Shown: positions 26,724 through 40,501 of the stretch, one piece after another
Layout of the letters: the number at the start of each line of letters is the position of its first letter
Numbering within the stretch: position 1 is the stretch's first letter
Sequence record: NZ_CP023526.1
Length of the DNA stretch: 64,000 nt
Reading direction: 5' to 3' (one strand)
DNA from: a plasmid
The notes under the pieces: generated by a model
Database searches by the model: none
The model's input: only the letters and a program-made list of their open reading frames with translations
Told to the model about the DNA's origin: nothing
Position numbers and translations under genes: made by a program

Positions 26724-27089
26724 CTATTTTGTTGTCTCCCCTTTATTATGCCGGAAGATGGTTCCGACATTATTACTCACTGTAGTCAGCAATTTAACTA
26801 CCACTGCCGAGGACACCAGCGCCCCAACGGGCTCTCGTGCAGTGACACTCTCCGGCGTGATACTGGAGACTACCTGTGCGGCAAAGGGGGCTGCCACCAC
26901 GCCAGCCAGCATCGATATTGCAAATAATATGACTGACTTTATTAATGGAACATCCGATAAATACAGTGCAAAAATAGCCGCCCCGACTAATGCGCCAACA
27001 AGGACGCCTGGGCTGTGTACGCTGTGTGTGAATGTTGCAATTTCAGTCTGTGCCAGTCGACTGACGTCGGTGACGCTTTGTATAATCAT
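26724..27089 (-). CDS. phage holin-like small membrane protein
   Basis: From the internal Met (MIIQSVTDV...): two to three hydrophobic helices (VLVGALVGAAIFALYL; ILFAISMLAGVVAAPFAAQVV) and a charged C-terminus. The upstream part of the listed ORF is probably not translated. Confidence 0.4.
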   Translation of the reverse strand: MIIQSVTDVSRLAQTEIATFTHSVHSPGVLVGALVGAAIFALYLSDVPLIKSVILFAISMLAGVVAAPFAAQVVSSITPESVTAREPVGALVSSAVVVKLLTTVSNNVGTIFRHNKGETTK

Positions 27090-27854
27090 GGTTGTTCTCC
27101 TCAAGCAAGATATATATCTCCGGATATCGGTTCTTTTCATCCCACTGTTTGAACCTGCTGGCGCATGCCGTGGCACAAAATCCTGGCGGATAAAATTGAC
27201 CTGACTGCACGGGATGGTATTGCCGAAATATATGGCGACCATGGCATACAGGGGATACGTAAAATATAAACGATGCATAAACATAAGCAGAGAGAATATT
27301 TTTTATATTATCGTGAATCTAAAGCGTGTGGCGTACATCTGATATTGCTATAAATTTATTGAATTGTAGTAACTAATACATAAGTACGTAATATTGTAAT
27401 AACAAATGGCTGACGCAAGAACATCATAATGTCCATGCCTTATGAACGGGAACGTTCATAAGGCATGGCATAAACCATCGCATTGCCTGGAATGTATGCT
27501 CACGGTACATCGCCTGACATTATTGTGAATTTTTTTTTCAGTATCTCTGAAAAGCACCATGTATTCTTCTGTTTTGTTTATCCCAGGGCATCGAAAAAAC
27601 CGTTATCGGCATGAAACCGATGCTATGCATGCAAAATCGTAGCGTAAGTCGACGTATTCACTGAATGATGTTTTCCTGTGTGGGTGAGGTTAACAAAGAA
27701 GGTGTGTATCAACTGGGGCTGCAATGTCACTCCGGAGGTGGGATTCTCTGCGCCAGGTGATAACAGCGGGAGCCACTTTGTGGTGACATTGCACGCCAGA
27801 ATAAAAGACAGAGAACGATCAGGTAAATAATGATGTCTCAATACATGCAGCATT

Positions 27855-29396
27855 ATGCTGCCCCAAAATTGCGCTATCTCAGGCCGGGCTGTGAACAAAT
27901 CTAAGGCGAAGCGTGAAATTACGCTGACCATCGGCATTTTTTTTGATGGCACGGGTAATAATGCACCCAACACGGAAAGAGCCCTCCGTAGCTGTGGTGC
28001 AGGCTATCATGATCTAAATTTTTCGGGCGCAGAGAGCATGCTGGCTAAATGCGTTCGTGATCACTTTGGCTTTTCTGGGGCGGAGGCAGTAAGTTATAAC
28101 ACCTATTTTACCAATATCTACTGGCTGAGCAGGCTTTACCAGCAGGGGTTGACCACTGAGGCTGATGAAGCCCAGAGTGTTGTCTATATTGAAGGTATCG
28201 GAACTGAAATTGATCAGCCTGATAACCTGGTGGGTCTGGGACTGGGTCTTGCAGAAACAGGGATAATTGCCAAGACAGATAAGGCAGTCTCTAAAATAGC
28301 GCGACATGTTCAGGACATGCTGCGCGTTTTTCAAAACCAACAACAAGATTGTGTATTTGTTGTCACAACTGTCAGATTTGATCTTTTCGGTTTCAGCCGT
28401 GGGGGAGCTGCGGCACGGCATTTTGCGAATCGTGTACATGCCAGGGACTCCGAGATCATCAAGGCTATCAACCAGGGCATGGCGCATTCGGCATGTGTGG
28501 GCACGCCAGTTGTTAAAAATCGTTTTATAGGTCTGTTTGATACGGTCGCCGCTGTGGGGATCCCCACCCATCACTTAAACCGACATGTTACAGACACCGG
28601 TGATGTAAACCTTTCGCTGGCCACTCGAGTAGCTGAGCGCGTTTTTCAAATCGCGGCGGCGCATGAGTGTCGCTTTAATTTTGCCCTCAACAGCGTTGGT
28701 CCGGATTGGCCGGAGCTGCTACTGCCAGGCGCACATTCTGATATCGGCGGGGGGTATTTGCCGGTAGTTACAGAAAATGTGTTTCTGTCACGTCCGGAGA
28801 CCGAAACTGTGCCCTTCGACAGGCCTGATGTGCAAACGCGGGTATACCAGAAGGCTTTTGCCCAGCTATCCATCCTGACAGCCTCCCCGGCGATGGCTGC
28901 GCTGGCTCGCGTCAACAACATTTCAGCTGAAACCTGGTATGACGGCAGAATGCCACTTGATCGTTATGGACAAATGCAGAAAAGGTGTTTCGCTGCACTG
29001 ACACTTCGAAACAGGGTAGTCAAAAATCGTTGGTCGACGGTAGCCTTGAGGGTGATGCGGGATGCTGCTCTGGAGGCCGGGGTAAGGTTTAATGCAATCG
29101 ATCCGACGCTGCCGGAGACGGCGTTGCCTGATGAGTTGGTGTCTCTGAGTGCTAAGGCTGTTGTTATGGGCAAAGCTGTTCGCCAGGGCCAGTCATCGCA
29201 AGCGTTTTCTTTGCAAGAAATGGATATGCTCGCCACAAAATATATTCATTGTTCGGCTCACTGGAATGCCATTGATACTGACGCTGACGGACGGATCCTT
29301 GGGGGGGCATTTCCCTCCGAACTCATTGGTTTTATCAGCCGCCCCGACGAGCAATGGCGGCGTACCGTTTATCATATGGATGCCCGGAGGAGATAA
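27855..29396 (+). CDS. DUF2235-domain alpha/beta hydrolase (T6SS phospholipase Tle1-like)
   Basis: Hallmark motifs TIGIFFDGTGNNAPN and FDLFGFSRGGAAARHFANRV (DGTxN and GFSRG of DUF2235/Tle1). 513 aa. No signal peptide. Confidence 0.7.
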   Translation: MLPQNCAISGRAVNKSKAKREITLTIGIFFDGTGNNAPNTERALRSCGAGYHDLNFSGAESMLAKCVRDHFGFSGAEAVSYNTYFTNIYWLSRLYQQGLTTEADEAQSVVYIEGIGTEIDQPDNLVGLGLGLAETGIIAKTDKAVSKIARHVQDMLRVFQNQQQDCVFVVTTVRFDLFGFSRGGAAARHFANRVHARDSEIIKAINQGMAHSACVGTPVVKNRFIGLFDTVAAVGIPTHHLNRHVTDTGDVNLSLATRVAERVFQIAAAHECRFNFALNSVGPDWPELLLPGAHSDIGGGYLPVVTENVFLSRPETETVPFDRPDVQTRVYQKAFAQLSILTASPAMAALARVNNISAETWYDGRMPLDRYGQMQKRCFAALTLRNRVVKNRWSTVALRVMRDAALEAGVRFNAIDPTLPETALPDELVSLSAKAVVMGKAVRQGQSSQAFSLQEMDMLATKYIHCSAHWNAIDTDADGRILGGAFPSELIGFISRPDEQWRRTVYHMDARRR

Positions 29397-30020
29397 ATCC
29401 GGCTATTTTTCCTGTCTGTTTCCCGGAGAACTGGGCATAAGCCTGTGGTATCAGTGCCAATATCCCTGTCAGCAGCATGGAAGATAATTATTTGCCATCA
29501 AAGGCAAGCCACAAAGACCTGCCTGATGACAGGAGAACGGGAATAGCCCCGGGCAACAAGCAGCAACTGATGATGCAGGCTATTTTTATCGCCAGTGGAA
29601 AACAGTTAATAACCTGAACGTCCATCATTACGCTATACCCATCTAATACTGGCCTGCCTGAAAGCGTTTCACTATCAGTCAATACTCTCATGTTACCGGG
29701 AACCCTTACGAGGTAGCATCCATTATTCGGTGTAAAAGATGTGTTTTCCCCGTCAGTCTTTGCCTCCTGAAAAGGCCGATTATTGGTGCCTTTCTGATTG
29801 CTGATTATCCCTAAATCCGATCTGGGATGCCGCGGCAGTCCAACCAACAGGACCTTGGCCTGGCTCAAGTGCATTCGTTAACAACCTGTCGCCTCTGCAA
29901 AGATTTTTGCGCCCACTTCGATCGCGGCGATTCCTGCTACGAAAGCACTCAGCGTCAGCAAAGCAGGCATTTCCACGATATCGCTGAGTGCTTTACCCAT
30001 TTCCAGACCCAGGCAGATGG

Positions 30021-30296
30021 GTAAGCGTTAAGTGAGCACCATATTGACGACTATTTATTGATGAGGTCTACGGACCATGGCAGAAGTTCTGCCACTTTAT
30101 TGGACGGCCACTCTGGCAGTACGCTCAGGATATGGCGAAGGTAAGCTTCCGGATCGATGCCATTCAGCCATTGGGTCTGCTCACCGGTCGAACGCGGAGG
30201 ATACTGGAGCACTGTTGTGGCCATTGTCGCCAAAAATGCAAGACTGTGCTGGACATTATTGCATTGCGGTGATGATTTCAGGCTGTACTCAGCCAA
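30021..30296 (-). mobile_element. IS66-family right end: terminal IR (GTAAGCG...) plus TnpC C-terminal fragment
   Basis: IR begins GTAAGCGTTAAGTGAGCACC at 30021. ORF 30051..30296 (minus) ends ...GIDPEAYLRHILSVLPEWPSNKVAELLPWSV, matching the conserved IS66 TnpC C-terminus. Confidence 0.6.
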
Positions 30297-30420
30297 CTGA
30301 AGTACAAAACTGTATGACCATATGACTTACAAATCTTTGATGATAAAGGTTTGATAACGTGAGGAATATCTGATTATTGTACAGGGCGAGTGTACCTGGC
30401 TAACGAACCAGAGCCTCAGG

Positions 30421-30447
30421 CGCGCCTTTCATCAGGGTCCGAATCGA
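30421..30447. repeat. 27-bp sequence CGCGCCTTTCATCAGGGTCCGAATCGA, repeated with 1 mismatch at 59100..59126
   Basis: Direct comparison of the two sites. Confidence 0.7.
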
Positions 30448-31179
30448 TGGCGATTCATCATGATCGTTTCCTGGGATCGTAGTCTCTCCCCTTTATTTTT
30501 TCTGTAGTGCAGACAGAAACCGTAAACACCGGCGTTGACATGCCGGGGAAGTCCTTATGGAACAATTTGTTTCGTTTCCCAAAGGCAGCCCTACCTGAAA
30601 AGTCGCCAGTCTCCATAAGTCCTCTGGAGCACTATGCCGGGCAGGATGAAATCATCCTGCGCTACCGGGAGCCACAGGGCGGGGCAGGGAGCGTGCCTGG
30701 TAGTGAGTGACGATGACTTTATGGCACGGTTTTTCTGGCAGGTCCCGGTCATAAGGTGCTCTGAACGCGGGAGAGGTTTTGTAAAACAGGGCATGAGATT
30801 TGATTTGTCTTAAGTGGTTAGCTGATGAAATATTACAAAACATGAAATACGTGTAGGGCGGGTTACGTTTATCCGCCATAACCCTGATGTTTGCCCTGAA
30901 GTCAAAGACGATTAAGGTCTAAACCGTGAGTAACACGGCGTAAATAGCGTCAAAATAATGCAAATACCACAGCAGATTCATGATTTTTTTACATATTATT
31001 GACCGTCCAGTCCATTTCCACTCTTTTTACGGTGTGAGATCTGGATATTGTTCCACAGAGACCTGTCTGCACCTTGTCATAAATACTCACAGTCAGGTGG
31101 GGGGAAAGCCACACAAACCGCAATAAGATAACTATAGTTACGGCAATTATCCTTTAGCTGTTTGGGCTACATCCTCTCT

Positions 31180-33045
31180 ATGCAAAAAAATAAAACTCCG
31201 CTGCCAGCGGTTACGCTGGCAGCAATTGGTGTCGTGTACGGGGATATTGGCACCAGTCCTCTTTATACCCTGCGTGAATGTCTTACCGGGGTTGAGGGAA
31301 TATCCATGACGCAGACATCGATATTTGGTTTCCTGTCGCTGATCTTCTGGCTCTTGATGCTGATTGTATCCCTGAAATATGTCTGCTTTGTGATGAAGGC
31401 AGACAATGACGGAGAGGGGGGGATACTGACGCTGATGTCTCTGGCCATCCGCAATATTAATTCTCGCCGGGCAGGGATGGTGATCCTGGCCGGTCTGGTC
31501 GGCGCCAGTTTCTTTTACGGTGACGGCGTCATCACCCCTGCTATTTCCGTGCTTTCAGCCATCGAAGGGCTGGAGCTTATTGCTCCCTCGCTGGCTGATT
31601 TCATTGTGCCGCTGGCCCTCGTTGTGTTGACTATACTGTTTGCTATCCAGAAATACGGTACCGGCAAGGTCGGTAAGCTTTTCGCCCCGGTTATGTGTCT
31701 CTGGTTTGTTATGCTTGCCGTGCTCGGCATTAGCGGGATTATGCGTCATCCCGGGATAGTACAGGCGCTGAACCCGTGGTGGGCCATACAGTTTTTCCAG
31801 CAGTACCGCAGTGCGTCGTTTGTTGCCTTGGGAATGGTGGTGTTATCCGTCACTGGGGCTGAAGCGTTATATGCAGATATGGGGCATTTCGGAAAAAAAC
31901 CAATTCGGATTGCCTGGGGAATGCTGGTTGCACCCGCGCTGGTCCTCAACTATTTTGGCCAGGGGGCACTGTTACTCAGCCAGCCTGAGGTGATTAAAAA
32001 CCCGTTCTTTCTTCTGGCGCCGGACTGGGCAATGATCCCGCTGCTCCTGGTTGCCACACTGGCGACCGTCATTGCTTCACAGGCAGTTATCTCCGGTGTT
32101 TTCTCTCTCACCCGGCAGGCCGTTCGTCAGGGGTATCTGCCTCCTATGCGTATCATTTATACCTCGGATGTAGAATCCGGACAGATTTATGTGCCGCTGG
32201 TAAACTGGTTGCTCTATGTGGCTGTGGTGATCGTCATCGTCAGCTTTAAAAGCTCAAGCAGTCTGGCCTCCGCATACGGCATCGTGGTTACCGGTACGAT
32301 GGTGCTGACAGCAGTTCTACTCAGCATTGTGCTGGTGAAAAACTGGGGCTGGAAGCGTCGCTGGGGGGGGATGATGCTCGTTGCCATGTTGGTGGTTGAT
32401 CTGCCACTGTTTGCTGCGAACCTTTCCAAGTTGTTCAGTGGGGGCTGGTTACCTGTGGTGCTCGGCCTGGCGATACTCCTTATCATGCTTACGTGGAATA
32501 CAGAACGCCAGCGCTTGCTTGGGCGTCTGCGCGATAATCCCGAAGCCCTGCAGGCCATGATTGGCTCCCTCGAACAGTCAGAGTCCCTGCGCGTCAGGGG
32601 GACCGCGGTCTATATGGAGCGATCACAGACAGCTCTGCCGCTTGCATTGATACATAATCTTAAACATAACAAGGTGCTGCATGAGCGGGTGATCCTGCTT
32701 AATGTGACCACGGCCGATGTGCCTTACTGGCACAATGTGCAACGTGTAACCATCACGCAATTGTCACCTACCTTCTGGCGTGTGGCGGCATGCTACGGCT
32801 GGCGAGAAACGCCAAATGTGACGGATATTCTCTATCGTTGTGGCATGGAGGGACTTCGTGTCACGATGGAAGAAGCCTCGTTCTTCCTATCCAGAGATAC
32901 GCTATTGCTGGGCGACCGACCTTGGTATTTGAAATGGCGAGGGTGGATGTTCCAGATCCTGCAACGCAATGCTCTACGTGCACCTGAACTCTTCCAGATC
33001 CCCGCTAATCGAGTGATTGAGTTGGGTTCCCAGGTTCGGTTCTGA
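31180..33045 (+). CDS. kup: low-affinity K+ uptake transporter Kup (second-copy-like context)
   Basis: Near full-length collinearity with enterobacterial Kup ([29 protein letters not shown]...[15 protein letters not shown]...[12 protein letters not shown]). Probable start at MQKNK. Confidence 0.9.
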
Positions 33046-33134
33046 TGGGCGTGAATGGAATGGACGCCCCCAATTAAGTGGCAGCTGTGTGTCAGAATGA
33101 AAGTGGGTCTTCCGCAACTTGGGTGGAGATTTTC

Positions 33135-33254
33135 ATGCCAGAGGACTCATCACCCGTCATGACTGGTGAACTAAAGGCGCTGAAATCGCATAATGAACAG
33201 TTGGCTGCGTTGCTGGCCGGAAAAACAGAACCAGTTAAGGGAGATAAAAAATGA
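33135..33254 (+). CDS. small ORF (39 aa) translationally coupled to the ParB-like gene
   Basis: MPEDSSPVMTGELKALKSHNEQLAALLAGKTEPVKGDKK. Its stop overlaps the next start (ATGA). Confidence 0.3.
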   Translation: MPEDSSPVMTGELKALKSHNEQLAALLAGKTEPVKGDKK

Positions 33255-33835
33255 CTAAAGAAGATGACCAGAAAAACTGCCCGGAGTGCGACGAAGAGGG
33301 GCGGAACATGATGCTCAGTCTTGAAGACATATTCGGCGACAGCATTAGAGAGATGCGGGAGCGAGATAAAGAGTTTTTACCGAAAACAGAATGGTTCTCC
33401 AGAATTGAGACTGACCTGGACACCTTTATGCAGACCTATATGACGAAGTATCCCTTTACGTCCTTTGAAGCGATCCCACGGGACGAGTCGGGACTGACGT
33501 TTCCGGCCTTTGAGGATTTGCAGTTTTATTTGCCACAACTGCTTCGTCATCAGCCAGTGAAGATTGTTGAGGTCGACGGACTGGCCTTTCTCAGCGTTCT
33601 TGGTGATGGTGCATTTTGCATCGATCCGCGCCGGTGGCACAGGATCAAAACCTACATTGCGAAAGGCACTGTTGAATACCCGCAGGTATCAGTCATGCAC
33701 TCTGGCGTATCGGACGGCCGCCATCGCACGTTGTTGCTCATGCAGCTGTACAACCGCAGAACAATCCCGGTTGTAGTCCCTGAAAGTCACTACGAGACGT
33801 TTATGGCTGAGGCGAAAAACAATGGTGCGGTTTAA
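33251..33835 (+). CDS. hypothetical protein with C-terminal ParB/sulfiredoxin-like motif
   Basis: ...YPQVSVMHSGVSDGRHRTLLLMQLYNRRTIPVVVP resembles the ParB-nuclease/Srx DGxHR core followed by the IPVVV strand. The N-terminal 150 aa are unassigned. Confidence 0.45.
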   Translation: MTKEDDQKNCPECDEEGRNMMLSLEDIFGDSIREMRERDKEFLPKTEWFSRIETDLDTFMQTYMTKYPFTSFEAIPRDESGLTFPAFEDLQFYLPQLLRHQPVKIVEVDGLAFLSVLGDGAFCIDPRRWHRIKTYIAKGTVEYPQVSVMHSGVSDGRHRTLLLMQLYNRRTIPVVVPESHYETFMAEAKNNGAV

Positions 33836-33836
33836 T

Positions 33837-33907
33837 TTTGGGGTCAGTTTGGATATAGAGAATTTTGTACGGTAAGCCTTTTTTGAACAGGCTTACCTAT
33901 TGCGATG
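33837..33907. repeat. ~70-bp repeat element copy A (TTTGGGGTCAGTTTGGATATAGAGAATT...hairpin GTAAGCCT/AGGCTTAC)
   Basis: About 85% identical to 34886..34956. Carries an internal hairpin. Confidence 0.65.
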
Positions 33908-33916
33908 TCCAGTCGA

Positions 33917-34549
33917 TTAACCAGCTGCACCCAACAAAGCCTGAATAGGCTTAAAATGATGAGTCGCAATGATATTCCTACTCTCCCAGCGGTCATGTGA
34001 AGCCTGCAGATTTATCCAAAAATCTTCGTCTGTCTGGAACAAAACGGCCAGCTGCGATGCTTCCGCTACACTCAGCCGGCGGCTGTTATTTACGATCTGC
34101 CCGATGACTTTACGGGACACGCCCATAACCAGCGCCAGTTCAGCCTGGGTGATATTCAGCGGCTTTAAAAACTCTTCAGAGAGCATTTCGCTTACAGTGG
34201 TAGGTTCTGCAACAGTCGTATCCATATCCCCCCCGTAACGGTATTTATGCGGATCGAGATAAATCTCGTAAGCGTGGCCGTCACGCCAGCGGAAAATCAA
34301 TCGCCACTGGAGACTAACCCGAATGCTTGACCAGCCTTCAAGGTTGCCACGCAAACGCTCATAGTTATTACTTGGCGGCGCAAACAGGGTTTTCTCACTG
34401 CTGGCCGCTTCAATAAGCGACAACTTACGACGAAGAGGCTTTTCAATCATGACCGGAATCCCTGCGCTTCTCTTCCCATTCAGATAGAACCGGGCAAGCT
34501 CACCATCCTGGCCGTCCTTAAAGCTACCAATCATCATTCGGCTCGTCAT
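33917..34549 (-). CDS. HigB-like toxin fused in-frame to HigA-like XRE antitoxin (single 210-aa ORF as sequenced)
   Basis: N-terminal half (...EGWSSIRVSLQWRLIFRWRDGHAYEIYLDPH) matches HigB/RelE-type 'killer protein'. C-terminal half (LSEEFLKPLNITQAELALVMGVSRKVIGQIVNNSRRLSVAEASQLAVLFQTDEDFWINLQ) matches the HigA HTH. The junction lies in a C7/G7 homopolymer at 34228..34234. Confidence 0.7.
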   Translation of the reverse strand: MTSRMMIGSFKDGQDGELARFYLNGKRSAGIPVMIEKPLRRKLSLIEAASSEKTLFAPPSNNYERLRGNLEGWSSIRVSLQWRLIFRWRDGHAYEIYLDPHKYRYGGDMDTTVAEPTTVSEMLSEEFLKPLNITQAELALVMGVSRKVIGQIVNNSRRLSVAEASQLAVLFQTDEDFWINLQASHDRWESRNIIATHHFKPIQALLGAAG

Positions 34550-34885
34550 GTTTGTGATGTGGTTATTATATCATCACCCAAGGCAATGCAACCAAAAAGG
34601 AACATGGTGTGCCAAAAAGGAACATAAAATAGATCCTATTGCGATCAAACGATCCTAAGAAGATCGCCCTGAAAGCCCTTCTTTCTGGCGTAAAACCTTC
34701 GTCCTTTCAGGCTACTCTGTTTTACGAAGTGGATTGGACACTTGCAGTCGATCATTTCTAACCTTCTCAGACGAGCTGTAAGCCATTTTGAGCACTTTTC
34801 TGCAGTAGTCGGTATCAAAACTTGCTTTGATAAGAGCGAAGCGGCTTAAGCTCGCGTAGCGAGTGAGAAATTATTTCCCTTTTCT

Positions 34886-34956
34886 TTGGGGTCAGTTTGG
34901 ATATAAAGAATTATTGTACGGTAGGCCTGTTTTTTGAACAGGTCAGGCCATCGCAG
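34886..34956. repeat. ~70-bp repeat element copy B
   Basis: TTTGGGGTCAGTTTGGATATAAAGAATTATTGTACGGTAGGCCTGTTTTTTGAACAGG... Direct repeat of copy A. Confidence 0.65.
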
Positions 34957-35130
34957 TAGGGTGTACTCCCGCGCTATATAGCGTCTGCTGTAGATTTTGT
35001 CTAATCGGACAACCTAAATGCGATACTGCAAGGACGATAACTTAATGGCAATAGCCACTGACGCCAAATCAATCCCTTACGTGTCATAGTTGGTTAAAAA
35101 ATACTCCTAACGTACAAAAATGTTCGATCT

Positions 35131-35143
35131 CCAAACTGACCCC
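35131..35143. repeat. inverted copy of the repeat core (CCAAACTGACCCC = reverse complement of GGGGTCAGTTTGG)
   Basis: Exact 13-mer match in inverse orientation. Confidence 0.5.
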
Positions 35144-35820
35144 TACCATAGCAAGTGGCAAAAATATGGCGGCTTGCCGCTTACAACCCCATGCACTGAG
35201 GAAACATGCTATCGGTCTTGTATCGACGCTGTCGTGGTTGCCGGATGACAGAGAATCAGTGCGAGCTTCCTTACCGATAGCCTTTTTGAGGCCGCCATTG
35301 GCGGGGGGCAGGCTTAGCTGCCAGGCTTTCTATGAAAGGTGTAAAGACATTCTGATGTCCTGGGCAATCCGGGGGGCACGTCACGACGCGGGTATGGGTC
35401 TTCTGGAAAACGGAGTGACAGCGCTTGTAGTTCTGGCTACCAGGGAAGGAACTGCCGCTGCCGTTGATGTCTTAAAAGTGCAGTTCCGGAAAATGTTGAC
35501 GGGCTGATGCCCCCACACCGTAAGTCCGTGGCCGTGTTGCAGCCCGCCTCGTCAGACGCATCAGTGAAGTCCGTCGCTACGCGGGTATCCCTTCATCTCG
35601 TATTGAACATGAGCTTGCACTGCTTGAACATAGTGCTGCACGTGTAATGATCCATGAGATGGCGGAAATCCTTGCGCCCGGGCAAATACAGCCGCAGTGA
35701 TCCGGAAGAGTAAACCAGGGGGGCCGGGCATGGCTGATACGAAGCCTGGCCCCGGAGGTCACTCTGGCTTCAACAAAGAAAATCATTGCCCTCGCTTTTC
35801 GGGGAAGGGCATATGTACGG

Positions 35821-37182
35821 TTACTTCACTTTTTCACCCATGATGTAGGTATGTTCTATGGTGCGATCGTCACCCATCATTTCAATTGCGAAGATTTTGC
35901 TTTCGACCGATTTGCTGTTCTCAGTTCTGATTTTCAACGCATTGTCACTCTGTGGATTGATAACGATGAAGTCGGCTTCTTTCCCTGGAGTGAAACTTCC
36001 AATTACGTGGTCAAGTGACAGGGCTCTTGCTCCTCCAAGGGTCGCCATATACCAGTTTTCCATCGGATCGAGAGGGTGGATATTTTCGGGTGTTTCTGTG
36101 AACGCTTTTCTTAACTGCGTCACGTTGTAGGCTCCCCCCATAACTTTAAGCATGGACAGACTGGTACCGCCCCCAACGTCAGTTCCCAGTCCTGTTTTAA
36201 CCTGATTTTTCTGGCTCTGTTCCAGATTGAATAACCCGCTCCCCAAAAACAGATTCGACAAGGGGCAGAACGCCACACTGCTGTGTAACGTTGCCAGTAT
36301 CTGAAAATCTGCATCAGAAACATGAACTGAATGGGCAAAAACAGACTTCGGCGTGACGAGACCATAATGTCTGTAAACATCCAGGTAACTTTTGCTCCAT
36401 GGGAACAAGGTTTTCACCCAGGAGACCTCCTGCCAGTTCTCTGCCAGATGGGTTTGCAACCAGACATCCGGGTATTCACGTAATAACCTGCCGGCTACCC
36501 GCAGTTCTGCCTCACTGGAAGTGGGCGCGAATCGTGGGGTAACGGCGTAACCCAGGCGTCCCTTATTTTTCCATTTCTCTATCAGCATTTTGCTCTGCTG
36601 GTAAGCCGTCTCTGGCGTGTCCAGTAGCGGGGCCGGCGCATTCCTGTCCATCAGCACTTTTCCGGAGATGAGACGCATATTTTTCCCAAGCGCTTTGCTG
36701 AACAGCGCATCCACAGAAACGGGATTGCTGGTGGCAAAGACCAGTGCTGTTGTAGTGCCATTGTTGATCAGTTCGTCGATAAATTTCCCGGCATAAATAG
36801 TGGCATGCTCCGGTGCACTGAATTTTATTTCGGTCGGGAAAACATAATCGTCCAGCCAGTCGAGGAGTTGTTTTCCATAAGAGGCTGTCATTTCGATTTG
36901 AGGAAAGTGTACGTGTGTGTCAACAAATCCGGGGGATATTATTTTCCCGCTATAATCAATAATCTGGTCAGGATGATATTTTGCCTGCATCGCAGTGGAT
37001 GAGCCGACATCAACAATATATCCGTCTTTTACCAGTAATAAGCCATTATGGATATAATGGCGGGACTGTATTTTCTCTTGAGGATCTCCCGTAAAGTGTA
37101 ATATATCGCCTTTATAACCCGTTAATGATGCATGGGTAATGAAAGGTGCAAGCAACAGGCTTGCAAAAAATGCGTGTTTCAT
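35821..37182 (-). CDS. guanine deaminase (GuaD) paralog, amidohydrolase superfamily, with N-terminal signal peptide
   Basis: Collinear with E. coli GuaD throughout (PGFVDTHVHFPQIEM..YG.QLLDWL; NGTTTALVF; KVLMDRNAP; RFAPTSS; GLGTDVGGG; PGKEADF). Carries an extra N-terminal MKHAFFASLLLAPFITHA signal-like segment. Confidence 0.8.
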   Translation of the reverse strand: MKHAFFASLLLAPFITHASLTGYKGDILHFTGDPQEKIQSRHYIHNGLLLVKDGYIVDVGSSTAMQAKYHPDQIIDYSGKIISPGFVDTHVHFPQIEMTASYGKQLLDWLDDYVFPTEIKFSAPEHATIYAGKFIDELINNGTTTALVFATSNPVSVDALFSKALGKNMRLISGKVLMDRNAPAPLLDTPETAYQQSKMLIEKWKNKGRLGYAVTPRFAPTSSEAELRVAGRLLREYPDVWLQTHLAENWQEVSWVKTLFPWSKSYLDVYRHYGLVTPKSVFAHSVHVSDADFQILATLHSSVAFCPLSNLFLGSGLFNLEQSQKNQVKTGLGTDVGGGTSLSMLKVMGGAYNVTQLRKAFTETPENIHPLDPMENWYMATLGGARALSLDHVIGSFTPGKEADFIVINPQSDNALKIRTENSKSVESKIFAIEMMGDDRTIEHTYIMGEKVK

Positions 37183-37259
37183 TTTAATCCTTAAGGTATG
37201 TAAATGGTCTGGTGAAACGAGCTTTGTGTTCGTCTGTCCAGACCATTTTTAAAAAGAGT

Positions 37260-38105
37260 TTATTGTCTGATCAAACGTGTTGTTGGCAGAATGCTTTCAA
37301 AATCACTTCGGAACGGGTTGATATCCAGCCCACCACGCCTTGTATAACGGGCAAAAACGCTAAGTTTTTGCGGGCGGCAATATTGTTTAATATCCATGAA
37401 AATCCGCTCAACACATTGCTCATGAAATTCATTGTGGTTACGGAATGAAATGATGTAGTGAAGAAGCCGCTTTGGATTGATTTTCTTTCCTTCGTATTTA
37501 ATGATAAGACTGCCCCAGTCAGGCTGGTTCGTGACAAGACAATTTGATTTAAGCAGGTTTGATGTGAGCATCTCTGAAACAGTAATGGCGTCATCAGTCA
37601 CAGCATTGTTCAGTATTTCAGGGCTGAACGAGTAATCCTTAACGTCAATATCTTCATGGTCGATATTGATTCCCGGTAAGGCCATGATGGTATGATTAAA
37701 CCCGATAAAATGGGGGTACAGCCTGACTTTTACTTCCCCTCCCGCAACCTGGCTAAGATCCTTTGTGAGTATGGCTGCAACAGCATCATGGCTTCTGATC
37801 TTTGTCTGGTTAAAACTGTTGAGATACAGCTTCAGCGATTTGGATTCTATCAATCCCGGCGTCGTGGCCGGGATTTCAAACTCTCCAATGGCAACAATAG
37901 GTTTACCTTTTTCATTGAGCCAGGAAATTTCATATGCTGTCCACAGATCAAAACCTGAAAAGGGGAGGTTGCCCTCACCGGTAATTCCAGCCTGTTTTCT
38001 GCCCAAAGAGCGTGGTAACGACTCCAGAATGGACGGCGAGTAAGTCTGTGGGGGCGCTATTTTTGAACCCAGCACACTTAGCGCATCTTCATCGTAATCA
38101 GGCAT
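37260..38105 (-). CDS. queF: NADPH-dependent 7-cyano-7-deazaguanine (preQ0) reductase, two-domain type
   Basis: Strong collinearity with E. coli QueF/YqcD (IESKSLKLYLNSFNQT; LLKSNCLVTNQPDWGS; ISFRNHNEFHEQCVERIF; VFARYTRRGGLDINPFRS). 281 aa. Confidence 0.85.
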   Translation of the reverse strand: MPDYDEDALSVLGSKIAPPQTYSPSILESLPRSLGRKQAGITGEGNLPFSGFDLWTAYEISWLNEKGKPIVAIGEFEIPATTPGLIESKSLKLYLNSFNQTKIRSHDAVAAILTKDLSQVAGGEVKVRLYPHFIGFNHTIMALPGINIDHEDIDVKDYSFSPEILNNAVTDDAITVSEMLTSNLLKSNCLVTNQPDWGSLIIKYEGKKINPKRLLHYIISFRNHNEFHEQCVERIFMDIKQYCRPQKLSVFARYTRRGGLDINPFRSDFESILPTTRLIRQ

Positions 38106-38114
38106 GTTAATTCC

Positions 38115-38798
38115 TTATTGATTTACTGTGTGAATAAATTTTCTGAATAACTTTCGTGTCCCATAGATAGGAAATACACCGGAGACAGCGTAGATAAGTT
38201 TAATAATAAATTGCGATACGATCATGGCTTTAATTGTTGGAAGGCTGAGTACACCATAAAAAGCAATGCTACAAAAAATGATACTATCGATGGCTGCCGC
38301 ACAAACTGAACTGATGATGACCCTGACAAAGAGATACCTGGAGTTGGTCAGGACTTTTATTTTGCACAGCAACCATGAGTTGATGTTTTCGGAAAGGAGA
38401 TAGGCCAGAGAGGATGCAAGCAGTACAGCAATAATATTGTGAATGAAGTACCGATAGGCCTGATCGTGAGGCCATTCTTTAAGGTCTGGTAAAAGTGTAG
38501 TCATCCACAACCCCCCCACGAAGAGGATGTTAGCAATAAATGATATGATAATAGTTCTTCGCGCCATCTTAAGCCCGTAAAACTCATTGAGTATATCCAC
38601 CAGGATGAATGTCAGTGGATAGAAAAAAATGGCCGGGGGAATAATAAGATTAAATGTGGACAGATGGACAGGCTTTACACCGCTGACAGTGGACAGAATG
38701 TAAATGACAGCCAGTGCTAAACTGATGGAGAAATATGCGTACCAGGAACGTTCATTTCGGTCGCTCATTTCATACTCAGTGGTTATGTTGTGGTGCAT
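38115..38798 (-). CDS. YhhQ/DUF165-family queuosine-precursor (preQ0/preQ1) transporter (ORF is open to 38984; probable start at MHHNI)
   Basis: Multi-TM protein with YhhQ-family motifs (ILVDILNEFYG ~ LATDLTVRIFG; VFPIYG ~ FLPMYG). 9-nt gap to queF. Confidence 0.7.
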   Translation of the reverse strand: MHHNITTEYEMSDRNERSWYAYFSISLALAVIYILSTVSGVKPVHLSTFNLIIPPAIFFYPLTFILVDILNEFYGLKMARRTIIISFIANILFVGGLWMTTLLPDLKEWPHDQAYRYFIHNIIAVLLASSLAYLLSENINSWLLCKIKVLTNSRYLFVRVIISSVCAAAIDSIIFCSIAFYGVLSLPTIKAMIVSQFIIKLIYAVSGVFPIYGTRKLFRKFIHTVNQ

Positions 38799-38974
38799 AT
38801 ACAGTTTTTTGTGTAGCGCTTTTATTTCATGAGGATTTAAATCATCTGAGATTTCTGAGTCGTCAAGCTCCTTCAGGGGCATGGCAATCACTTTCCCGGT
38901 CGACAGAACCAGCACTCTGGCAGTGATGATTTCGCCAAAGAGAAAGCCCAATAGTTTGTATTTAAGATTGTATT

Positions 38975-39589
38975 TCACTGACATATTTCCTCAATCAGGA
39001 CGCCTAACCAGACTTCCTGGTTGTCACAGTTGTTTTCTTCCGATGACGTTTCTCTGATTTTTAGCGTGTTGTTGTTATCCAGAAACAGCGAGGGCAGCAG
39101 GCTTCGTTTAAAGGGGGAACGATTCACGATGAGTAAGGTCCCCACATCAAAAGTCTCCCCCATCTCGGCATCAATCAGAAGCGCAATAAAATTTCCACCT
39201 GAACTGAAATACCAGGTAGTATCAAAAATCTGTATGAGCTGGCCTACAGTCTTTGAAAGTGTGTTGCGCAGGCAGGTCCCCGGAATAATCGGGAGCGCAA
39301 TCGGGTTCTTGTTCCCGTTGAATGCTAATGTCTCCTCCGTTTGTTTCATTTTACCCAGGTCAGTATTCTCGATGGTTTCGCAGGAGATGCCAAAAAAATC
39401 AGAAATCCGGGTGACCGTCGACTGTTGTACATGACTGACTTTGCCTTCCAGTATTTTATAAATTGTTGCGCGAGTCAGACCTGTTTTCTGGCTGAAGGAC
39501 GTTTTAGTTTCGCCATGCTCCTCTATCAGGAAATTTATATTTTTAGCAATATTGCTATTACGTTGCGCATTTGTGATCCTATTGCTCAT
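38975..39589 (-). CDS. XRE-family HTH regulator with C-terminal LexA/cI-like (peptidase S24-like) domain
   Basis: N-terminal HTH (TKTSFSQKTGLTRATIYKILEGK). C-terminal beta-rich region typical of cI-like repressors. First gene of the co-directional cluster. Confidence 0.55.
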   Translation of the reverse strand: MSNRITNAQRNSNIAKNINFLIEEHGETKTSFSQKTGLTRATIYKILEGKVSHVQQSTVTRISDFFGISCETIENTDLGKMKQTEETLAFNGNKNPIALPIIPGTCLRNTLSKTVGQLIQIFDTTWYFSSGGNFIALLIDAEMGETFDVGTLLIVNRSPFKRSLLPSLFLDNNNTLKIRETSSEENNCDNQEVWLGVLIEEICQ

Positions 39590-39892
39590 GTTTAACCTGT
39601 TCGCTAGCGAGATTTGAGAGAAGGACTGTTACGGAAGCTACGTTTCACAGCGTAGTGGACCAATAACGATTTTCTAATCGATTGTGTGTTTTTGTTGTTT
39701 ATTTCGGATGTTTCTCTTGTTGTCCTAATTTTAAATAAAACATCAGGTTGATGAGTTGCTTTTATGGAAGGATTCAAATTAATGATCACATGTTAATTAT
39801 TGTGTTGATTTTAATCCGAGGGTGCGCTATTCCTGCTTAAGTTGAGGTGCATCCATCTCTGAAAGGAATGAATTAAAAACAAGGCGGGAATA

Positions 39893-40501
39893 ATGATGTC
39901 AGCGCATCAATCGTTATCGGAAATAAAAAAGAAAATTCTTATTTTCATGTTGACAGTCGAGCGTCATTTTCCAGGTTCTTTCCCGATAAGATATATTCAT
40001 AAATCGCTTGGTATTGACAGTGTTTATTATTCCTGTGGGCTGCTGGAGTCCGCAGGTTTGGTTTGCCTGCAGCGAAAGCCCAATCGCAGGGTCTTTATCG
40101 AGCTGACCGATGCCGGGCGTGCGATGGCGGCTTCGCTGATGCCTGTGGAATATTGTCAACATCGGGAGGCCGGGAACCGGATCTTACCTTCCCGCGCTCA
40201 GAGAAGAGAGATGCGGGACATTGAAATCGACATCAGAGGGCGGCCTTACATTGTCAGCCGGGCGGCATTTGTTATCCATCCCGATGGCACGACAAGCCTT
40301 GCCTTGTGGAGTAAAAATAAAGGTCAGGCCTGGCTGAACGGTAATGCCCGCCAGGTCAGTGAGTGGTACCAGGCCTGCTATGACGCCGGGTTGCCTGTCA
40401 GTGTGCAGGTTGAAGATGATCGGTGGATGGCCAGCCTGGACGACAGATTGCCACACCTTTCACGAGGGGAAGCCGTCGTTATTTTTCCCTCACCATGCTG
40501 A
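39893..40501 (+). CDS. winged-helix (MarR/PadR-like) domain protein with unknown C-terminal domain, divergent from the queF cluster
   Basis: IKKKILIFMLTVERHFPGSFPIRYIHKSLGIDSVYYSCGLLESAGLVCLQRK is wHTH-like. Confidence 0.4.
   Translation: MMSAHQSLSEIKKKILIFMLTVERHFPGSFPIRYIHKSLGIDSVYYSCGLLESAGLVCLQRKPNRRVFIELTDAGRAMAASLMPVEYCQHREAGNRILPSRAQRREMRDIEIDIRGRPYIVSRAAFVIHPDGTTSLALWSKNKGQAWLNGNARQVSEWYQACYDAGLPVSVQVEDDRWMASLDDRLPHLSRGEAVVIFPSPC

Follow-up and report, generated by a model that had tools for sequence, protein, structure and literature searches.

In the GraTA toxin–antitoxin system of Pseudomonas putida, the active site of the toxin is a cleft around the C-terminal His92, and GraT was rendered inactive when a TEV site and tag took the place of H92 (PMC6393540). 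Neutralization is steric, the antitoxin keeping the toxin off the ribosome, and the two proteins assemble as T-A2-T (PMC6393540). Toxin and antitoxin domains have also been described within one polypeptide. Synechocystis Slr1999 (HicA-HicB) has been read as a bicistronic operon fused in a strain-specific manner, fused homologues being absent elsewhere (PMC4963859), and Escherichia coli EzeT has a cis-acting antitoxin domain and a fused architecture with experimental support (PMC4803016).

The locus described here lies in a window of 64,000 nt (the whole stretch of DNA analysed, from sequence record NZ_CP023526.1), to which all coordinates refer. It was found to be a derivative of a plasmid-type higBA module and not a canonical two-component one. 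A HigB-like toxin of the RelE superfamily and a HigA-family HTH (XRE) antitoxin are present in toxin-first order, but they are not separate polypeptides, as no stop codon separates the domains. A preliminary description of this DNA had offered three scenarios for the fusion, each turning on the length of a homopolymer at the junction. The comparison with relatives presented below points instead to a single-base stop-loss substitution (A-to-C, TAA to TAC) as the cause, and this explanation as a whole is considered highly probable.

The fused gene and its setting

A single ORF on the minus strand spans 33917..34549 and encodes 210 aa from its first ATG, with a translation that includes ...HKYRYGGDMDTT.... 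The start used by all relatives is the MIGSF start at 34534, which gives a fused product of 205 aa. The N-terminal half matched Pfam HigB-like_toxin (PF05015) over aa 14–101, covering profile positions 4–91 of 91 (86.9 bits against a cut-off of 27 bits, E 1.3e-24). The C-terminal half matched Pfam HTH_3 over aa 126–177 and the NCBIfam HigA equivalog TIGR02607 over aa 115–191 (71.7 bits against a cut-off of 47.7 bits, E 3.4e-20), and was also matched to YbaQ (2EBY) among PDB entries at 1.3e-15. The matches for both domains are far above chance level. The parts of the gene are as follows, with pDS1 and Morganella p1 being the two closest relatives found.

33917..34549, minus strand: fused higB-higA ORF, from the ORF list with Pfam and NCBIfam matches; its 205-aa product corresponds to P0006
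34238..34534, minus strand: HigB-equivalent part, 99 codons, MIGSF...LDPHKYR, delimited by codon comparison, protein alignment and the end of PF05015 at His101
34235..34237, minus strand: TAC (Tyr) where the toxin stop codon sits in junction alignments, the relatives having TAA (pDS1, Morganella p1) or TAG (IncP-type plasmids)
34226..34234, minus strand: 9-nt spacer GGGGGGGAT, with G7 at 34228..34234, identical in pDS1 and Morganella p1
33917..34225, minus strand: HigA-equivalent part, 102 aa and stop, with its own ATG (34225..34223) and the upstream G-rich site intact, from exact-sequence look-up, TIGR02607 and YbaQ 2EBY

In Cedecea neteri the exact HigA half is annotated alone, under WP_061277068.1 and two GenBank accessions, and the 205-aa fused product is separately on record from NCBI and Logan sources (P0006). 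Exact look-ups in a contig index gave no contig for the 210-aa or 205-aa product; the HigA half led to one, from a second C. neteri assembly (L006). In the AlphaFold2 model of the fused chain both domains had pLDDT above 90 (mean 90.4), and disorder was confined to residues 103–111, a 9-residue linker. The pTM of 0.74 suggests a defined intramolecular arrangement of the domains in the model. Foldseek superposed the modelled toxin half on Proteus vulgaris HigB with a TM of 0.88–0.89 and the antitoxin half on the HigA-type proteins YbaQ, GraA and PaHigA with TM values of 0.75–0.87.

The closest relatives were plasmid pDS1 from an uncultured bacterium (KC170283.1; 90.3 % nucleotide identity over all 1101 nt queried) and plasmid p1 of Morganella morganii A19 (NZ_CP135145.1; 91.2 % nucleotide identity). 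Their HigB proteins are 99 and 96 % identical to that of the window and their HigA proteins 93–94 %, and all three loci have in common the promoter repeats, the G7 tract, the 9-nt in-frame spacer and the toxin-first order. More distant are modules on E. coli IncP-type (trfA) plasmids, about 79 % identical and annotated as two genes, in which a 99-aa HigB ending ...DPHKYR-TAG is followed by an 8- or 11-nt spacer and then HigA; in one example, pMCR_BE2-5, higBA stands next to trfA/ardR. Among distant relatives the G run ranges from G5 to G7 and the spacer is 8, 9 or 11 nt long. The toxin stop codon is kept in pDS1, Morganella p1 and the IncP-type modules (TAA or TAG), giving two proteins of 99 and 102–104 aa, whereas the window encodes one protein of 205 or 210 aa.

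On the minus strand, the junction in the window reads CGT TAC GGG GGG GAT ATG, and in both pDS1 and Morganella p1 it reads CGT TAA GGGGGGG AT ATG. The sole difference is TAC against TAA at 34237..34235. Given that G7 and the 9-nt spacer are identical in these relatives, the substitution of the stop codon accounts for the fusion. The spacer length in this branch is a multiple of three, so that higA was already in the frame of higB and one A-to-C change in the stop codon suffices. The spacer GGGGGGGAT, untranslated between higB and higA in the relatives, is translated here as Gly-Gly-Asp, and the predicted read-through product is HigB(1–99)-Tyr-Gly-Gly-Asp-HigA(1–102) as one polypeptide. The G7 tract itself is the unchanged ancestral G-rich spacer for ribosome binding at higA and not the lesion. 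In two metagenome relatives this tract is broken (GGGGGCGAT; GGGGGCG) with no change in layout.

Two other origins were considered and rejected. The IncP-type relatives suggested insertion of a single C into TA|GGGGGGG, but with TAA followed by G7 in pDS1 and Morganella p1 a plain A-to-C change is sufficient. A frameshift or change in homopolymer length is rejected on the ground of the identical G7 and 9-nt spacer in these plasmids.

The preliminary description thus stands in its observations and is revised as to the cause. The ORF list, Pfam and NCBIfam bear out its placing of the HigB and HigA halves in one 210-aa frame, the junction does fall on a 7-nt homopolymer (G7 at 34234..34228 on the minus strand), and the frame that would be read with six Gs does end at 34192 (ORF 34192..34284, ending ...GGIWIRLLQNLPL*). 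Its proposal that homopolymer length is the lesion does not survive the finding of the same G7 and spacer in pDS1 and Morganella p1, which encode two genes by virtue of TAA; the comparison of tract length in relatives that it called for gave G7 in both, and the length is therefore unchanged in the window. Nor was a six-G overlapping pair the ancestral state, since all 26 close relatives (HigB at least 60 % identical) end in ...HKY(R)-stop before the G-rich spacer, with no overlap. The tethered toxin–antitoxin that it envisaged from a neutralizing frameshift is retained as a product, but its cause is the TAC substitution and not a frameshift.

The substitution looks recent. Only one of 99 residues differs between the HigB parts of the window and pDS1 (A28V) and 7 of 102 between the HigA parts, with nucleotide changes mostly synonymous, so that both domains are still essentially plasmid-like.

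The window locus is chromosomal, whereas pDS1, Morganella p1 and the IncP-type relatives are plasmids. The features of this setting are as follows.

34565..34625, minus strand: putative higBA promoter/operator, conserved with pDS1 and Morganella p1, hexamers assigned by eye
33159..34887, no strand: pDS1-like plasmid DNA in the chromosome, comprising higBA, its promoter and a convergent 194-aa ORF, from blastn against pDS1 (L004)
33840..33877 (plus), 34888..34925 (plus) and 35106..35143 (minus): three 38-nt inverted repeats of Tn3-family type (IR-a, IR-b and IR-c) surrounding higBA

The pDS1-like stretch showed 89.8 % identity over 1747 nt in blastn and is flanked by the chromosomal gene kup (31162..33045) and by an amidohydrolase gene (35821..37182) of an amidohydrolase/queF cluster. 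This arrangement indicates a plasmid-type higBA that now sits in the chromosome of Cedecea neteri, with kup on one side and the amidohydrolase gene on the other.

The putative promoter consists of a −35-like TTGCAT at 34591..34586 and a −10 TATAAT at 34570..34565. Its spacer is 15 nt in the window against 16 nt in pDS1 and Morganella p1 (a G4 run reduced to G3), and for this reason it was missed by a consensus promoter scan that allowed spacers of 16–18 nt. The spacer shorter by one base may lower expression from this promoter, which was assigned from its conservation and by visual inspection. A pair of conserved direct repeats, ATGTTCCTTTTTGG, at 34625..34612 and 34605..34592 is a candidate for the HigA operator.

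Several other elements were observed nearby. The convergent 194-aa ORF (33251..33835, plus strand) has a conserved counterpart in pDS1, a hypothetical protein (L004 1741..2280), and carries a DGRHR motif near its C-terminus; it had no Pfam match. A 129-aa Logan protein (P0004), in which the C-terminal half of HigA runs past its own stop codon into sequence antisense to a homologue of this ORF, is a further decaying copy of the module, from a different organism. The 38-nt repeats share the consensus GGGGTCAGTTTGGATATA.AGAATT.TTGTACGGTA[A/G]G, and IR-a sits where pDS1 has a terminator-like hairpin. Between 34888 and 35143 lies a 256-nt miniature element with inverted repeats GGGGTCAGTTTGGA...GTACGGTAGG at 34888..34925 and 35143..35106 and a long-hairpin fold (z −4.1 and −5.8), which matched about 3,455 records of enterobacterial plasmids, mostly conjugative, and is usually unannotated in them. 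TIMEs have been described as elements of about 262 bp with Tn3-family inverted repeats of about 38 bp, no transposase and a 5- or 6-bp target-site duplication (PMC4133298), and the 256-nt element fits this description in its size, its repeats and its lack of a transposase. No target-site duplications were found at the Tn3-type repeats, the flanks being TCTTT/TACCA for IR-b/IR-c and ATTTT/TACCA for IR-a/IR-c.

Elsewhere in the window there is a tRNA-Ile with anticodon TAT (UAU) at 22755..22831 (plus strand); a UAU anticodon is unusual for tRNA-Ile in Enterobacterales. Near it are a phage-holin-like ORF (26724..27284), an ORF for a T6SS Tle1-like phospholipase (27855..29396) and an IS66 fragment, a neighbourhood that suggests an island or prophage remnant. 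An Rfam search over the window returned three tRNAs only and nothing near the higBA locus.

Occurrence of fused forms

To place the window fusion among related modules, a further 82 toxin-first pairs of adjacent genes were surveyed, drawn from genomes, plasmids and metagenomes. Toxin-first order was found in all 82 of these related pairs, and in 32 (39 %) the antitoxin is in the frame of the toxin, the usual spacer being 9 nt. An intervening stop codon is lacking in only two of the 82 (L026 and L043), and neither was retained as a comparable fusion: in L026 the toxin N-terminus is also frameshifted, L043 has a 1-nt deletion relative to its own relatives in a MAG assembly, and both appear damaged or mis-assembled. 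None of the 26 close relatives is fused.

The search for the TAC allele itself gave a similar result. A 41-nt probe spanning TAC, with TAC in every seed word (megablast), had no match in 72,556 plasmid and 20,395 E. coli records. A strict junction pattern had no match in metagenome or viral contigs, and a looser one recovered nine metagenome loci, all nine of which keep the stop codon. The fused architecture is thus not conserved among homologues, the TAC allele being known only from one C. neteri lineage.

At greater distance, a word-indexed protein search with the fused protein gave four matches, none of them full-length, while HMMER over 1.84 billion representatives found about 15–20 distant proteins (25–40 % identity) matching across both halves. 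Several of these have the same anatomy of toxin C-terminus, a few read-through residues and antitoxin Met, with junctions such as DYHWGIAM and DYHWRGANM that are as expected from loss of a stop codon by TGA-to-TGG change; others carry frameshift debris. Most fused clusters are singletons, but the P0156 cluster has 44 members, nearly all of 198 aa, and the P0129, P0061 and P0042 fusions each occur on several contigs. Recurrent lengths of single-chain HigB-HigA proteins, from metagenomes and some genomes, were 189 aa (P0129/P0174), 197 aa (P0061/P0172) and 209 aa (P0042/P0171). The C-terminal DYH motif of the toxin has degenerated in P0156 and P0129 (VRSH, LITKEK). Fusions of the P0156, P0129, P0061 and P0042 type may be domesticated repressors with a toxin domain. 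Together with the in-frame layout of many pairs, the distant junctions point to stop-loss fusion as a recurrent sporadic accident of the higBA layout, occasionally retained.

The same material bears on whether the window protein is instead a functional, selected single-chain HigBA, neutralized in cis until proteolysis, phage infection or another trigger releases or activates it, in the manner of EzeT or fused CapRel-type systems. Such a reading would be in keeping with the persistence of a few of the public fusions (P0156, P0129, P0061, P0042), with the two intact and confidently folded domains joined by a flexible linker, and with the documented existence of fused toxin–antitoxin proteins (PMC4803016, PMC4963859). 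However, the allele is present in one C. neteri lineage and in none of the 26 close relatives, and it shows no later divergence from which selection could be gauged. The loss of DYH in the persistent clusters inspected indicates toxin inactivation and not a regulated toxin, and the other fused loci examined have extra damage or are MAG assemblies. We therefore consider a selected single chain very unlikely for this locus, and prefer a recent, strain-specific stop loss.

Length of the G7 tract

The other explanation that had to be weighed is an error in tract length. Were the true tract G8 (or G6), the two domains would be unfused: HigB would have an out-of-frame tail of 16–20 aa, with higA as a separate, overlapping gene. 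Such errors classically occur in G/C homopolymers, and a contig of a second C. neteri assembly (L006; UAVU01000009.1 of GCA_900461005.1) has G8 where the window has G7; the G8 leads there to the calling of a 119-aa HigB overlapping higA.

The contig was compared with the window at 40224..27922 (12.3 kb), where it had no mismatches and eight single-base indels, seven of which are +1 insertions in the contig. The differences by type of run were as follows.

G/C runs of at least 7: five runs, three of which differ in the contig (all +1)
G/C runs of 5–6: 19 runs, none of which differs
A/T runs of at least 5: 58 runs, one of which differs

Two of the insertions split kup into pieces of 224 and 364 aa, whereas kup in the window is intact at 627 aa, and the 194-aa ORF and the Tle1-like ORF are also truncated in the contig. 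Gene calls in the contig are unreliable in genes with homopolymers. As it over-calls three of the five long G/C runs and breaks kup, its G8 is most likely a systematic long-run error. In contrast, the versions of kup, the Tle1-like gene and the 194-aa ORF in the window are intact or longer, G7 is present in both closest relatives, and the in-frame 205-aa product is on record from two sources. The G7 of the window is credible on this comparison of assemblies. The contig also carries TAC at the junction, so that the substitution does not hang on one assembly, although the window and the contig may come from the same strain and the allele is known from one C. neteri lineage. Moreover, even with G6 or G8 the toxin stop codon would be lost and the locus would still be abnormal. 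A tract-length error is accordingly given little credence. The sequencing error proposed in the preliminary description is matched by the G8 of the sister assembly, but it is that assembly, which over-calls long G/C runs, that appears to be at fault.

A slippage switch, the last of the early proposals, in which the length of G7 would vary in the population between a tethered (off) state and an untethered, tailed toxin (on), is highly improbable: the tract does lie inside the fused ORF, where a one-base change would part the domains, and tract and spacer do vary among more distant relatives, but no evidence for such a switch was found, the tract is ancestral, was non-coding until the stop was lost and so cannot have been selected for switching, some relatives of the same layout have it interrupted (GGGGGCG), its sole length difference within C. 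neteri is most likely explained by the systematic assembly error, and both slipped products would have unnatural C-terminal tails beside the catalytic His. In an enterobacterium with working mismatch repair, a contingency tract of seven bases would in addition be short.

A homopolymer where two genes meet is easily taken for a frameshift; here comparison with close relatives cleared the tract, and the same comparison exposed the systematic +1 errors in long G/C runs of the sister assembly. For annotation, the locus should be recorded as a higBA module with loss of the toxin stop codon, not as a frameshift and not as an isolated higA, as is now the case in C. neteri.

Predicted consequences and known systems

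The Pfam toxin profile ends at His101 of the window protein, and the tether starts three residues later. His101 is presumed to be the equivalent of the catalytic histidine on the basis of the profile alignment, the MAFFT alignment being one column off. PDB entries of HigB delta-H92 and Y91A variants agree with a role for the C-terminal histidine. Following the stop-loss substitution, free HigB would no longer be made, and every toxin would carry the antitoxin about 4–8 flexible residues past His101. As the antitoxin of such modules neutralizes by a steric block of ribosome binding, the tethered HigA should hold the toxin off the ribosome, and would do so permanently, by way of the usual interface, in cis or in trans, or as bulk beside the active-site cleft. 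With a HigA domain that can still dimerize, the chain could assemble into a counterpart of the T-A2-T repressor complex. The internal G-rich site and ATG, whose function is assumed from their conservation, may also still yield some free HigA. Proteolysis in the disordered linker could in principle free HigB with a short tail.

Turnover of the antitoxin would no longer separate it from the toxin, and the killing or addiction function would thereby be lost. On balance we favour this combined outcome, in which the fused toxin is kept off the ribosome, a repressor-type complex forms through the HigA dimer, some free HigA is made and killing or addiction is lost. The capacity for post-segregational killing and growth arrest has probably been lost, and the module would be disarmed or decaying. 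Taken alone, the locus is an ordinary case of a chromosomal toxin–antitoxin module being disarmed, minor and strain-specific.

The locus nevertheless offers an otherwise intact, natural HigB-linker-HigA chain that is one base from the canonical module. The TAC allele and a TAA revertant would form a matched pair for the effects of tethering on neutralization, antitoxin turnover and autoregulation. A broader proposal, which we regard as unlikely, is that a single-chain HigBA works one mutation after its birth, and that stop loss repeatedly makes tethered toxin–antitoxins of which some are retained (for example P0156). If true, retained fusions would evolve into cis-regulated toxins or into repressors containing a toxin domain, and stop loss would offer two-gene modules a general way to become fused systems of the EzeT or CapRel kind.

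The distant metagenome fusions (P0156, P0129, P0061, P0042, P0032 and P0047) have the same domain order and junction anatomy as the window, but they are only 25–36 % identical to it, which indicates independent events, and the persistent ones have lost DYH while the toxin domain of the window is intact. Among characterized two-gene systems, P. putida GraTA (6F8S) and Proteus vulgaris HigBA (4MCT/4MCX) have the same folds as the two halves of the window protein, and resemble what is presumed for it in their C-terminal catalytic His, folded HTH antitoxin and steric exclusion from the ribosome (PMC6393540). They differ in being two chains with about 25–40 % identity to the window, and the toxin subfamily of the window ends in LDPHKYR and not in DYH.

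Synechocystis Slr1999 and E. coli EzeT resemble the window in having toxin and antitoxin domains in one polypeptide, but belong to other toxin–antitoxin families (HicAB and zeta/epsilon respectively). The fused architecture of EzeT is conserved and that of the window is not. Slr1999 is strain-specific, like the window fusion (PMC4963859). In contrast to both proteins, the window fusion, known from its sequence, is one point mutation away from an ordinary two-gene pair.
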